DNA from: Candidatus Margulisiibacteriota bacterium
GTDB lineage: Bacteria; Margulisbacteria; WOR-1; O2-12-FULL-45-9; XYB2-FULL-48-7
Assembly: GCA_028717325.1 (NCBI GenBank)
Contig: JAQUOB010000001.1
Location: 1-26,026, forward strand
Length of the DNA stretch: 26,026 bases
Direction: 5' to 3'
Both the position numbers and the translations under genes were made by a program. Each line of letters starts with the position of its first letter. Positions within the stretch are counted from its first letter, which is position 1. Positions 421 through 22,724 of this stretch are shown here, one piece after another. Under the pieces are notes generated by a model. That model was given only the letters and a program-made list of their open reading frames with translations. It was not told the DNA's origin and searched no databases.

Positions 421-456
421 TTTGGAAACCTGCGACTAAACGTCGCGGTTTCCAAA
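421..456 (-). repeat. REP-like imperfect hairpin, copy 1
   Basis: Minus strand reads TTTGGAAACCGCG-AC-GTTTA-GT-CGCAGGTTTCCAAA, a stem with one bulged A. Inverted relative to copy 2. Confidence 0.9.
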
Positions 457-497
457 AAACCAGGAACCGCGAAGTTCATTCGCAGGTTCCTGGTTTT
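456..497 (+). repeat. REP-like imperfect hairpin, copy 2
   Basis: AAAACCAGGAACCGCG-AA-GTTCA-TT-CGCAGGTTCCTGGTTTT, ending 1 nt from the alaS stop codon. Confidence 0.9.
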
Positions 498-498
498 A

Positions 499-3189
499 TT
501 ACGTTATCAGCTTTCTTATCGCCTCGAACCCGGCTTTGATCCTGGTCGGATCTTTGCCGCCGCCTTCGACTTTGGTCTCCTTGCCGCCGCCCTTGCCGCC
601 GACCAGGCCGGAGAAAACATCCGCCAGCTTTTTGGCCGACAGCCCTTTTTCGACCAGGTCGGGAGTTACCGTGATCAGATAGACCAGGCGGCCCGGCCAA
701 GTCGAGGCCAGGACCAGGACGCATGATTTTAACTGCTCTTGCACGGTATCGGATACGGTTCGCAGGACGTCCATGTTGTTTTCTTTAAAAACCTTGAACA
801 GCGATTTGACCCCGCCGATCTCTTCCAGCTCGGAGAGATAACTGCCGGCTTCGCTCCTGGCCTTTTTTACTTTGAGCCCTTCGATCTCCTTTTCCGCTTT
901 GGCCACCCGGTCTTTCAGCCAGTCGACCCGGCCGTAGAGATGGTCAAGGAATTTGTTAACGTTGACCGAATCGTGATTATCGATCGCTTTCGCTATCCGC
1001 TCCAGCTCCGTCGGCTCGATCTCGAAGATATTGGTCTCCATGCCTTTTGAACCGCCCAACTGCTCTTTCTCGATCTGTAGCAGACGGTATTTGCGAATCA
1101 TGCCCTCCACTTCGTCGTGCAGTGATTTGACCTTGAAAACGACAAAAACCTTGGCGGTCTGGCCCGCGATCGCTTCGAGCCGGCGCACCCCCGAACCGAG
1201 CGCGCCTTCCGAGATGATCTTGAAAAACTGGATATCGCCCGTCGATTTGACGTGCGTCCCGCCGCAGAGTTCGGTGCTGTAATCATCAACCTTCAAGACC
1301 CTGACCTGGTCGCCGTATTTTTCTCCGAACAGCGCCATCGCGCCCATGGCCACGGCTTCTTTGTACGATTTGCGCAGGACCTCGACTTTGATCTTTTCGG
1401 CGATCTTGCGGTTGACCGCCTGTTCCACCTTTTGCAGTTCTTCGAGCGAGACGGCGTGGAAATGGTTGAAGTCGAACCGGAGTTTTTCCGGACCGACGTA
1501 AGAGCCGGCTTGTTTAACGTGTTCGCCCAACAGGTCGCGCAGCGCCCGGTGCAGGAGATGGGTTGCCGTGTGGTGAGCTTCGGTCGCTTTTCTTTTAGAG
1601 ACATCGATCAGCGCCTTGACCCGGACATCGGTTTTAAGCCCTTTCAATTCATCAACCACGTGCAAAACGATCCCCCGGGGCGAAATGTAAGTGTTCACGA
1701 CCCTGATCTCGTTCTTGTCCCAGGCGAGGATCCCGGTATCGCCCGCCTGCCCCCCGCTCTCGCCGTAAAACGGGGTCTTTTCGAGCACGACCACGTTGTG
1801 CGACGGAAAAACCGCGATCACTTTCGATTCTTCCGCGCTCTTTTCGTAGCCGACAAAATTGGTCGCCGGATAGGCGGCGAGGTCAAGCGCGGTCAGGTCG
1901 GTCTTTTTCTCCGCCGGCTGGCCTTTGCGCGCCCGCTCTCTCTGGGCTTCCATCTCTTTTTCAAAACCGGCCTGGTCGATGTTAATGCCTTTTTCTTTGG
2001 CCAGTTCGACCGTCAGCTCCATCGGAAAGCCGTAGGTGTCGTGCAGTTTAAAGACCTCCGCGCCTGAGATCAGCTTGTCCTCCGCGTGTTTGGCCGCGGT
2101 CTCGGCGAACCATTTCATCCCCTGCTCCAGCGTGGCGAAGAAATTTTCCTCTTCTTCCTTGATCGTCGCGACAATATTATTTTCTTTTTCCGCCAATTGG
2201 GGATAAGCGTCTTTCATATCGGCAATGACTTCGCGGGACAACTCATTGAGGAACGGTTTATCAATGCCCAGCCGCTTGCCGTGGGAAATAGCTCGCCGGA
2301 TCAGCCGCCGCAGGACGTAGCCGCGGCCCAGGTTGGAGGGAAAAACCCCGTCGGAGATCAGGTGCGTGACCGCCCTGATGTGGTCGGCGATGATCCTGAC
2401 CGAAACGGGCGAATCGGCCGATCTTAGCGCCTCGACTTTTTTCATCAGCGGCGCGAACAGGTCGGTCTCGAAATTATCGTCAACGCCCTGCAGGACCGCG
2501 GTTATCCGCTCCAGCCCCATGCCGGTATCGATCCCTTTTTGCTTGAGCGGGACCAGTTCGCCTTTTTCGTTGCGGTTGTAGGAGATAAAGACCAGGTTCC
2601 AGACCTCGAGGAACCGGTCGCAGTCGCAGCCCGGCGAACAGTCGGGCTTGCCGCAGCCCTTGCCCTCTCCCATATCATAATAGATCTCCGAACATGGCCC
2701 GCAGGGGCCGGTCGGGCCGACCGCCCAGAAATTGTTGTCTTCGCCCAGCCGGAAGATGATCTCTTTGGGCAGGCCGATATCCTTGTGCCAGATGTCGTAG
2801 GCCTCATCGTCTTTTTCATAGACCGCGATCTTTAATCTCTGCACCGGTATCTTGAATTCTTTGGTCAACAGCTCCCAGGCGAACTGGATCGCCTCTTTTT
2901 TGAAATAATCGCCGAACGAAAAATTACCGAGCATTTCAAAAAAGGTGTGGTGGCGAGGCGTTACGCCGACATTCTCGACGTCGTTCATCCTCATGCATTT
3001 CTGGACCGTGGTCGCCCTTTTATGGGCCGGTTTTTCCTGGCCCAAAAAGATCGGCTTGAACTGGAGCATGCCCGCCAGCGTTAAAAGGACCGTGGGATCG
3101 GTCGGCACCAGGGGGGATCCGGGCAACACTTTATGGCCCTTGGCCTCAAAGAAGGCCAGGAATTTAGTTCTGATCTCCGAGCTTTGCAT
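499..3189 (-). CDS. alaS: Alanine--tRNA ligase
   Basis: 896 aa. Motifs DPTVLLTLAGMLQFKP, RHHTFFEMLGNFSFGDYFK, DTGMGLER, editing HTATHLLH and ELCGGTHV, C-terminal GGKGGG. GGGAG RBS upstream. Confidence 0.99.
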   Translation of the reverse strand: MQSSEIRTKFLAFFEAKGHKVLPGSPLVPTDPTVLLTLAGMLQFKPIFLGQEKPAHKRATTVQKCMRMNDVENVGVTPRHHTFFEMLGNFSFGDYFKKEAIQFAWELLTKEFKIPVQRLKIAVYEKDDEAYDIWHKDIGLPKEIIFRLGEDNNFWAVGPTGPCGPCSEIYYDMGEGKGCGKPDCSPGCDCDRFLEVWNLVFISYNRNEKGELVPLKQKGIDTGMGLERITAVLQGVDDNFETDLFAPLMKKVEALRSADSPVSVRIIADHIRAVTHLISDGVFPSNLGRGYVLRRLIRRAISHGKRLGIDKPFLNELSREVIADMKDAYPQLAEKENNIVATIKEEEENFFATLEQGMKWFAETAAKHAEDKLISGAEVFKLHDTYGFPMELTVELAKEKGINIDQAGFEKEMEAQRERARKGQPAEKKTDLTALDLAAYPATNFVGYEKSAEESKVIAVFPSHNVVVLEKTPFYGESGGQAGDTGILAWDKNEIRVVNTYISPRGIVLHVVDELKGLKTDVRVKALIDVSKRKATEAHHTATHLLHRALRDLLGEHVKQAGSYVGPEKLRFDFNHFHAVSLEELQKVEQAVNRKIAEKIKVEVLRKSYKEAVAMGAMALFGEKYGDQVRVLKVDDYSTELCGGTHVKSTGDIQFFKIISEGALGSGVRRLEAIAGQTAKVFVVFKVKSLHDEVEGMIRKYRLLQIEKEQLGGSKGMETNIFEIEPTELERIAKAIDNHDSVNVNKFLDHLYGRVDWLKDRVAKAEKEIEGLKVKKARSEAGSYLSELEEIGGVKSLFKVFKENNMDVLRTVSDTVQEQLKSCVLVLASTWPGRLVYLITVTPDLVEKGLSAKKLADVFSGLVGGKGGGKETKVEGGGKDPTRIKAGFEAIRKLIT

Positions 3190-3784
3190 CGATTGTCTCC
3201 CTTATTTTGTTCTGTATCTCTTCGATCGTTTGATCGTCCGTATTGATGACCACAAACCGCGCGGGATCGTCTTTGGCGATCCGCAGATAACTCTTGCGCA
3301 CTCGCGTATGGAAATCGATCGCTTCCTGCTCGAACCGGTCGGCTTTGCCGTGCTGGGTGGCGCGCTTCAAGCCGATCTCGGGCGAAACATCGAGCAGAAA
3401 CGTCAGGTCGGGCACCAGGCCTTTAGATGAGACCATGTTCAAGTACCTGACCAGGTCTTCGGGCAGGCGCCGGCCGCCGATCTGGTAAGCCAGCGTCGAA
3501 TCGATGAAGCGGTCGGAGATAACGATCTTGTCTTCGTTCAAAGCCGGCAGAATTATCTTGCTGACGTGTTCCGACCGGTCGGCCGCGAAAAGATAAACTT
3601 CCGTCGTCTCATCCAGCACGCTTTCCGGTTTTAACAGCAGCGAGCGGATCTCTTTGCCGACCTGCGTGCCGCCGGGCTCAAAGGTCAGCAGGACGCGCAA
3701 GCCCTTGCCTTCGATATAAGATTTCAATCGCTTGGAATGGGTCGATTTGCCACAACCCTCCGGACCTTCGAACGTAATGAACAT
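3164..3784 (-). CDS. tmk: Thymidylate kinase
   Basis: MFITFEGPEGCGKST P-loop, TFEPGGT, LFAADR, SDRFIDSTLAYQ. Confidence 0.98.
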   Translation of the reverse strand: MFITFEGPEGCGKSTHSKRLKSYIEGKGLRVLLTFEPGGTQVGKEIRSLLLKPESVLDETTEVYLFAADRSEHVSKIILPALNEDKIVISDRFIDSTLAYQIGGRRLPEDLVRYLNMVSSKGLVPDLTFLLDVSPEIGLKRATQHGKADRFEQEAIDFHTRVRKSYLRIAKDDPARFVVINTDDQTIEEIQNKIRETIDAKLGDQN

Positions 3785-22618: not shown

Positions 22619-22639
22619 CTTAAATCCTCCTCTTTCTTA

Positions 22640-22669
22640 GGAAACCGCGGCGTTCAGCCGCAGGTTTCC
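22640..22669 (+). repeat. REP-like hairpin, copy 6
   Basis: GGAAACCGCG-GC-GTTCA-GC-CGCAGGTTTCC. Confidence 0.9.
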
Positions 22670-22682
22670 GACATATCATTTC

Positions 22683-22724
22683 ATTTTTGGAAGCCGCGAA
22701 GTTCATTCGCAGGATTCCAAAAAT
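22683..22724 (+). repeat. REP-like hairpin, copy 7
   Basis: ATTTTTGGAAGCCGCG-AA-GTTCA-TT-CGCAGGATTCCAAAAAT, abutting the ligA stop codon. Confidence 0.9.

Follow-up and report, generated by a model that had tools for sequence, protein, structure and literature searches.

A dispersed family of bulged hairpins linked to an IS200-type Y1 transposase clade in Candidatus Saganbacteria

The window analyzed here is a 26,026-nt stretch of DNA (positions 1 to 26,026 of contig JAQUOB010000001.1) from a metagenome-assembled genome (MAG) of Candidatus Saganbacteria/WOR-1 (GCA_028717325.1; 1.41 Mb, 224 contigs, 84% complete), referred to below as the source genome; all genomes compared with it are also MAGs. 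The window contains seven copies of a short bulged hairpin, together with tnpA (21073-21519, minus strand), the sole Y1_Tnp gene found in the source assembly. This gene encodes a 148-aa Y1 transposase of the HUH (histidine-hydrophobic-histidine) type and of class 1 (IS200 type), with the motifs DHVH, KLWGRGY, and YINNQ..GIDKR. The arrangement is reminiscent of REPtrons, in which repetitive extragenic palindromic (REP) repeats accompany a REP-associated tyrosine transposase (RAYT), and we describe below the hairpins, the transposase, and the evidence linking the two.

Hairpin copies in the window and in the source genome

Three hairpins bracket the tnpA locus in inverted orientation, as claimed in a first-pass annotation of the window, with the nuance that one of them lies within the tnpA open reading frame (ORF) and that the bracketed unit also includes a 364-aa gene (21524-22618, minus strand) between tnpA and its upstream hairpins. 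On the downstream side, copy 5 (21094-21133, core 21104-21123, minus strand) is sense to tnpA and is located in the 3' tail of its ORF. On the upstream side, copy 6 (22635-22674, core 22645-22664, plus strand, stem GCGGC/GCCGC) and copy 7 (22684-22723, core 22694-22713, plus strand) are antisense to tnpA and are found between the ligA stop codon, which copy 7 abuts, and the 364-aa gene that precedes tnpA.

The other four copies lie at two loci. Copy 1 (419-458, core 429-448, minus strand, stem GCGAC/GTCGC, loop GTTTA) and copy 2 (457-496, core 467-486, plus strand, stem GCGAA/TTCGC, loop GTTCA) are the ruvX-proximal and alaS-proximal halves, respectively, of a doublet within an insertion of about 94 nt (409-502) that fills the spacer between the alaS stop and the ruvX start. 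Copies 3 (16129-16168, core 16139-16158, minus strand) and 4 (16747-16786, core 16757-16776, minus strand) are within mutS (14830-17316, minus strand) at two variable loops, where they share one reading frame and are translated as EPRRSVAGS and EPRRLVAGS, respectively.

The first-pass annotation had located the copies by the starts of the longer hairpins and had described a shared 20-nt core. The pattern of that core, CCGCGNNGTTYANNCGCMGG, indeed has seven exact matches in the window, compared with 0 in 100 dinucleotide-preserving shuffles, and no further near-matches were found in the window with up to two mismatches allowed. The conserved unit spans about 30 nt and reads as GGAAA-CC followed by a stem of 5 bp, a GTTYA loop, the returning strand of the stem, a single unpaired base, and GG-TTTCC, with conservation dropping beyond core positions -5 to +24. 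As single-stranded DNA (ssDNA), all seven window copies fold into the bulged hairpin (-14.5 to -18.4 kcal/mol, z-scores of -6.3 to -8.6).

The source genome contains 39 copies in total (0 for a reversed-pattern control), all with fully Watson-Crick inner stems and mostly intergenic, with two in mutS and one in the tnpA tail. Seven of the 39 are in the 26-kb tnpA window, where 0.72 would be expected (Poisson P ~1e-5, for a window chosen post hoc); such a concentration near the transposase gene is also seen in REPtrons. Four stem types are represented, namely GCGAC/GTCGC (15 copies), GCGAA/TTCGC (15), GAGAC/GTCTC (8), and GCGGC/GCCGC (1), combined with the loops GTTCA (25) or GTTTA (14). On the 3' side of the inner stem, every copy keeps one unpaired base, as previously noted for the window copies; this base varies, being A in most (31 copies) and otherwise C (3), T (3), or G (2).

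The covariation proposed for two stem positions (AC/GT, AA/TT, GC/GC) was confirmed, and a third covarying pair was found genome-wide (GCG../..CGC vs. GAG../..CTC). To avoid circularity, we redefined membership from the outer stem and the loop alone, which retained 29 copies; the inner pairs are 5/5 Watson-Crick in all of these, and so are 87 of 87 cells across the three variable pairs, whereas 2000 shuffles gave 61 such cells on average and never more than 73. The copies fall into a few subfamilies, hence the covariation represents few compensatory events rather than 39 independent ones. Further stems occur in relatives (GCGAG, GCGGG, GAGGC, and GAGAA), and these are mostly paired.

Where copies are adjacent in the source genome, they form inverted "-+" doublets in 13 of 14 cases, with 16-40 nt between cores, and usually join two different stem subtypes. 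The GTAG/GGAG foot of classical REPs had been reported as absent from the window copies. Genome-wide, GTAG was found in the 5' flanks of 0 of 38 scored copies and GGAG in 2 of 38; CGTC was found in none of the scored 5' flanks. About one third of the copies, distributed over six contigs, carry the outer flanks CGAGGAAA...TTTCCGAG, which do not form Watson-Crick pairs; C-G would close a tandem G-A/A-G mismatch there. The partner of such a copy in a doublet is usually a perfectly extended TTGGAAA...TTTCCAA copy.

The transposase clade and its hairpin brackets

According to Quentin et al., DH[VI]H combined with Y-x3-Q marks class 1 (IS200), and Y-x3-NP marks class 2 (TnpA-REP/RAYT) of the Y1 transposases (Quentin et al., 2018; PMC6006769). 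The IS200-type motifs reported by the first-pass annotation (KGxSSR, LWxRGY, and YIxNQ) are all present in TnpA. The protein scores 77.4 bits against PF01797 (cut-off 23) and passes the NCBIfam IS200 model NF033573 with 66.1 bits (cut-off 55), and it fails the REP_Tyr_transpos model NF047646 with 52.1 bits (cut-off 80), on which the positive controls, E. coli RayT and local Y-x3-NP proteins, reach 179 and 104-106 bits, respectively. In a phmmer search of PDB, the best matches were the transposases of ISDra2, Sulfolobus, and IS608 (2a6m, 2xm3, and 2f4f; E-values from 8e-10 to 1e-3), and the ten matches listed up to E = 1 did not include E. coli TnpA-REP.

The placement on a Y1 tree suggested at the outset gave a consistent result. 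In an IQ-TREE phylogeny of 80 sequences, a clade of 37 (ultrafast bootstrap 99/SH-aLRT 95) contains TnpA along with all Saganbacteria proteins that have hairpin flanks; this clade lies nested within the Y-x3-Q proteins, which a 100/99 branch divides from the Y-x3-NP proteins including RayT, and a quick tree of 143 sequences agrees. All 11 clade members tested pass the IS200 cut-off and fail REP_Tyr_transpos, with clade scores of 39-55 bits on the latter; the ten of them other than TnpA score 62-85 bits on the IS200 model. DH[VI]H and Y-x3-Q are found throughout the clade, which also has signatures of its own, namely a C-terminal G[IV]DKR[FY] and a WG motif instead of W[TS]. Few proteins of the clade are present in public data: among 1.84 billion proteins, 35 cluster representatives had E < 1e-10, and about 14 of the best-scoring ones fall within the clade in trees. 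Judged by its sequence, then, the predicted enzyme belongs to the IS200 radiation (class 1, Y-x3-Q) and not to the RAYT branch (class 2, Y-x3-NP).

The hairpin bracket of tnpA is not peculiar to the window, as it was found in nearly all clade members, with bracketed members from about 20 genomes. An antisense hairpin is located upstream, 13-86 nt before the domain, and a sense hairpin downstream, anywhere between 50 nt within the ORF and 13 nt beyond it, which is the same "-+" geometry as in the free doublets. The detector, limited to a 5-nt.TT.A loop, missed the variants of some subclades, which we recovered by reading the flanks. One subclade has hairpins with a GATAT loop and another has hairpins with a 4-nt TTYA loop, while one member (from G039) has GGAGCCGAC..TTTAG..GTCGGG. 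The GATAT-loop form is present in 4-24 copies in the four genomes of genus g6, which encode that subclade, and in 0 copies in the source genome; the 4-nt TTYA-loop form is present in 5-20 copies in the four genomes that encode the other subclade (G004, G013, G014, and G036), and in one copy in the source genome. Hairpin variants are thus particular to TnpA subclades, and each is dispersed only in genomes encoding the matching subclade.

No such hairpin flanks were found at the RAYT-type Y1 genes of the same genomes (104-106 bits on REP_Tyr_transpos), or at a second group of IS200-type genes in these genomes (characterized by NFWARKY). Saganbacteria thus also encode true RAYT-type (Y-x3-NP) proteins, of which G025 has as many as six and some are 200-300 aa long, and none of the 11 RAYT-type loci examined is flanked by the hairpin family. 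Two Y1 proteins from other assemblies (one of them from GCA_050288085.1) that are near outgroups of the 37-member clade are bracketed by an antisense and a sense hairpin, with GTTTA or TTTCA loops and in some cases without a bulge. Because of these bracketed near-outgroup proteins, the association between hairpins and Y1 genes may predate the Saganbacteria clade.

An enzyme that is class 1 by every sequence test could be that of an ordinary selfish insertion sequence (IS) of the IS200 family, accompanied by non-autonomous derivatives resembling palindrome-associated transposable elements (PATEs) or miniature inverted-repeat transposable elements (MITEs); the hairpins would then be IS ends left behind or amplified, and nothing would have been domesticated. 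The patchy distribution within the class is in keeping with this, as are the 1-3 gene copies per genome in relatives (mostly divergent, sometimes closely related) and the lack of target duplication that is expected of Y1 elements. However, the flanking hairpins are mutually inverted, while the two ends of IS200/IS605 elements are both on one strand (PMC6006769). There is also no room for separate IS ends, with hairpins 13-86 nt upstream and others overlapping the 3' end of the ORF. Further, the source genome has one gene copy against 39 hairpins, the window contains no tnpB, and the same operon positions are kept across genera and two families (see below). We therefore regard this explanation as unlikely.

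Distribution and mobility of the hairpins

The strict motif was found in 46 of the 65 class genomes, with up to 103 copies in relatives, and is thus not confined to the window, whereas the 81 genomes of the phylum's other classes have only a few matches, mostly unpaired and chance-like. Calling presence of the TnpA clade at E <= 1e-24 gives 24 class genomes with the clade and 41 without; at least five hairpins are found in 22 of the former vs. 12 of the latter, bearing in mind that related genomes are not independent samples. The co-occurrence test that the first-pass annotation had suggested thus speaks for its interpretation.

Movement of the hairpins is recorded between alaS and ruvX. In five relatives (G006, G011, G003, G012, and G007), this site is empty, with the alaS stop directly adjacent to the ruvX start or overlapping it, while the source genome carries about 94 extra nt made up of the doublet. 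Occupied and empty junctions were read directly, as the MAFFT alignment did not open the gap cleanly. By parsimony, the doublet was inserted in the lineage of the source genome, and the site-occupancy polymorphism shows that hairpins move. No target-site duplication above control was found at 23 scored units of the source genome (the longest shared word having a mean of 4.96 nt vs. 4.93 nt in mismatched controls), which fits Y1 chemistry and not transposition of the DDE type. At the alaS-ruvX insert, AGCTT occurs on both sides (409-413 and 509-513) and matches AAGCT just before the junction in relatives; this could reflect duplication of the stop/start junction, either short or since decayed.

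Genes of the clade are found at two positions in one operon. The order ligA-tnpA-spoU is found at seven loci, in the source genome, in G011, G006, G013, G005, and G010, and in one further MAG, and the order pheT-tnpA-mutS in G003, G010, G013, G019, and G023, which represent two families. Those pheT-mutS occupants that are present in the tree cluster together, which fits long vertical residence. A hairpin scar was sought where ligA and spoU meet in five genomes without tnpA, but these sites hold unrelated lineage-specific genes and are uninformative. The ligA-spoU junction is a variable spot, with AT-rich lineage-specific genes upstream of spoU in G007, G012, G002, G008, and G138, one of which (in G002) looks DUF559-like. 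In G019, another IS200-type Y1 gene (of the NFWARKY/YxxNQKKD group, without hairpin flanks) is located between truB and ligA, so that more than one kind of Y1 gene is drawn to this operon.

Several observations weigh against a REPtron-like system run by this TnpA clade. The first concerns the hairpin-rich genomes among the 12 (of 41) that have five or more copies and lack the clade. G002 has 48 copies (96% complete) without a Y1 gene, G138 has 58 copies (91% complete) without a Y1 gene of any type, and G012, G037, and others are also hairpin-rich without a clade Y1 gene; a search with the Pfam model and the window protein, at E-values up to 10, found no Y1 gene in G002, G007, G008, G012, G037, or G138. 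The hairpins of G002 could be explained by recent loss of the enzyme, by a gap in the bin, or by selection acting on the hairpins. G138 has ten identical doublets, each inside an element of about 140 nt with imperfect terminal inverted repeats of about 22 bp (AGCAAACAGTGTGC core), a variable right-end extension, and a 9-bp target duplication in three copies and probably in a fourth. This element is a DDE-type MITE that captured the doublet, and another transposase can therefore spread hairpins. The hairpins of the source genome are unlike such a MITE, as their flanks have no duplication signal; terminal inverted repeats with target duplications occur only in the G138 carrier. Second, some genomes have close paralogues of the clade gene (two in G032), an IS-like behavior. 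Third, the ligA-spoU site holds different subclades within genus g6, and the synteny there may partly reflect site preference or replacement rather than inheritance. Fourth, the tree is based on about 134 alignment columns and has no reliable root. Of the REP-like system tied to an IS200-clade TnpA that the first-pass annotation had proposed, the copy count, the tree, and the co-occurrence are upheld, while hairpin-rich genomes lacking the clade, such as G002 and G138, in part bring about an outcome that the annotation itself had named as refuting.

Those same genomes raise the question of whether the hairpins are host elements with a function of their own, for example in transcript ends or stability or as a protein-binding site, with Y1 genes inserting into doublets or staying beside them without mobilizing anything. 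The copies are indeed tight at gene ends, and their behavior in mutS is also in line with this idea. Two loops of MutS (approximately aa 183-203 and 393-423) hold intact hairpins in many genomes (eight loci), either as sense singlets (EPRRLVAGS) or as entire in-frame "-+" doublets (PET[EK]RLG...) in either orientation, while the remaining genomes have unrelated variable sequence at both loops. Intact copies recur at these two loops in distant genomes and the 20-nt core is kept across the class although MutS identity is down to 68%, and this persistence suggests renewal or selection acting on the nucleotide sequence. On the other hand, copies that are translated inside ORFs cannot be terminators. 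At two hairpin loci, a consensus terminator scan made no call on the hairpins, probably owing to the bulge, and so says nothing either way on a terminator role; a search of the window with Rfam gathering scores gave 0 matches. Further, enzyme subclades and hairpin variants are co-distributed, the link is specific to one Y1 clade and does not extend to the RAYT-type or other IS200-type genes of the same genomes, and the occupancy polymorphism at alaS-ruvX shows movement. A purely host-encoded role thus appears improbable to us.

Interpretation and comparison with known Y1 systems

Taking these lines of evidence together, we consider it likely that the hairpins are the cognate substrates of the IS200-type TnpA clade in a system similar to REPs and REPtrons. 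Comparative genomics supports this interpretation; that TnpA runs the system is what we infer from it, the activity of the enzyme being predicted. In this system, an imperfect hairpin of about 30 nt is dispersed as singlets and as inverted "-+" doublets similar to REPINs (REP doublets forming hairpins) or bacterial interspersed mosaic elements (BIMEs), and its cognate enzyme would be an HUH Y1 transposase that is low in copy number and keeps to syntenic sites. By analogy with the TnpA of IS608 and ISDra2 and with E. coli TnpA-REP, TnpA would bind the hairpin on ssDNA, recognizing the bulge and the loop, which would set the orientation, together with the invariant G and the CC/GG positions of the hairpin. 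Again by analogy, the tyrosine would cut beside the hairpin and the ends would be rejoined, so that hairpins or doublets are copied or moved. Copies in tolerant gene loops, such as those in mutS and the tnpA tail, would survive as short peptide inserts because four of the six frames of the element are open.

The likeness to E. coli REP/BIME with TnpA-REP (RayT/YafM) and to the REPIN-RAYT systems of Pseudomonas (REPtrons; RAYT groups 2 and 3, class 2) lies in a low-copy Y1 HUH gene bracketed by inverted short imperfect palindromes (PMC6006769, PMC5581495). As in those systems, tens of copies of the palindrome are scattered through the genome, often forming inverted doublets that combine two subtypes; the repeat type is particular to the enzyme type, and the position of the gene is inherited. 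The system differs from them in that the Saganbacteria enzyme has Y-x3-Q (YINNQ) instead of Y-x3-NP and falls on the IS200 side of the tree, its hairpins are without the GT[AG]G foot, and the copy number is lower (39 in the source genome). In addition, the hairpin core is kept across the entire class, and copies occur in frame inside essential genes. Even for the REPs of E. coli, the mode of dissemination is described as unsettled (PMC8266576).

With the TnpA of IS200/IS605 elements (IS608, ISDra2, and Sulfolobus), the enzyme shares the HUH plus Tyr-x3-Gln core and a size of about 130-150 aa, and bulged hairpins would similarly be the recognition elements (here putative), without target duplication. 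Unlike in those elements, the flanking hairpins are inverted and not co-oriented, and in the source genome tnpA is syntenic, without tnpB, and single-copy rather than present as several near-identical copies. In summary of both comparisons, the system works like a REPtron but lacks two features that define RAYTs (Y-x3-NP, together with the corresponding model score, and the GT[AG]G foot), and it also lacks two features of IS200 elements (multiple identical copies and co-oriented ends).

Previously described Y1 groups come close to this combination. Bertels et al. distinguished an "IS200 Group 3", a RAYT-like group within IS200 that has no duplicates and has abundant flanking 16-mers (Bertels et al., 2017; PMC5581495). 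Together with subclass 1.2, Group 3 is on the IS200 side and shows non-IS behavior, being without duplicates, not on plasmids, and low in copy number (PMC5581495, PMC6006769). Subclass 1.2, which is low-copy, reported without REPs, and defined by WQ and YIKNQKEHH, occurs in Cyanobacteria, a sister phylum (PMC6006769). The Saganbacteria clade has neither WQ nor YIKNQKEHH, and we liken it to Group 3 by the description of that group only. Our literature search for repeats in Saganbacteria found nothing relevant. In the subclass 2.4 RAYTs of Cyanobacteria and Bacteroidetes, REP copies are present in frame in coding genes including the transposase gene (PMC6006769). The Saganbacteria hairpins are similar in this respect, as in-frame repeats tolerated in loops and present in the transposase gene, here with a hairpin in the C-terminal tail. 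A further parallel concerns the insertion into coding sequence alone. The palindromic elements of Rickettsia, about 100-150 bp long, likewise sit in frame within protein-coding genes, where loops tolerate them; they are not known to have a Y1 partner.

More tentatively, and without quite favoring it, we raise the possibility of an independent second domestication of a Y1 transposase, within the IS200 radiation and in the Saganbacteria lineage. This would have given rise to an REP-type system at least as old as the order, whose hairpins co-diversify with enzyme subclades, outlast loss of the enzyme, and are repeatedly tolerated as in-frame copies, or renewed as such, at fixed loops in essential genes such as mutS. 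The "separate origin" part of this proposal would hinge on the unrooted, short-alignment tree described above. Whether RAYT-type domestication happened once or several times was left open by Bertels et al. (2017; PMC5581495), and a REPtron-like system on the IS200 side, in a lineage sister to Cyanobacteria, bears on that question. It would mean that REP-like elements need neither the GTAG foot nor a class 2 enzyme, and that small genomes can accommodate them in frame within essential repair genes. The several enzyme subclades and their matching hairpin variants could serve as a natural specificity panel. Annotators would label tnpA as an ordinary IS200 transposase and miss the system.

Finally, the 364-aa gene that shares the bracketed unit with tnpA in the window was not found beside tnpA in any relative examined. 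Its N-terminus contains a NucS_C-like nuclease domain, and the protein is a full-length match (493 bits) to the PADLOC candidate single-gene defense family PDC-S11.

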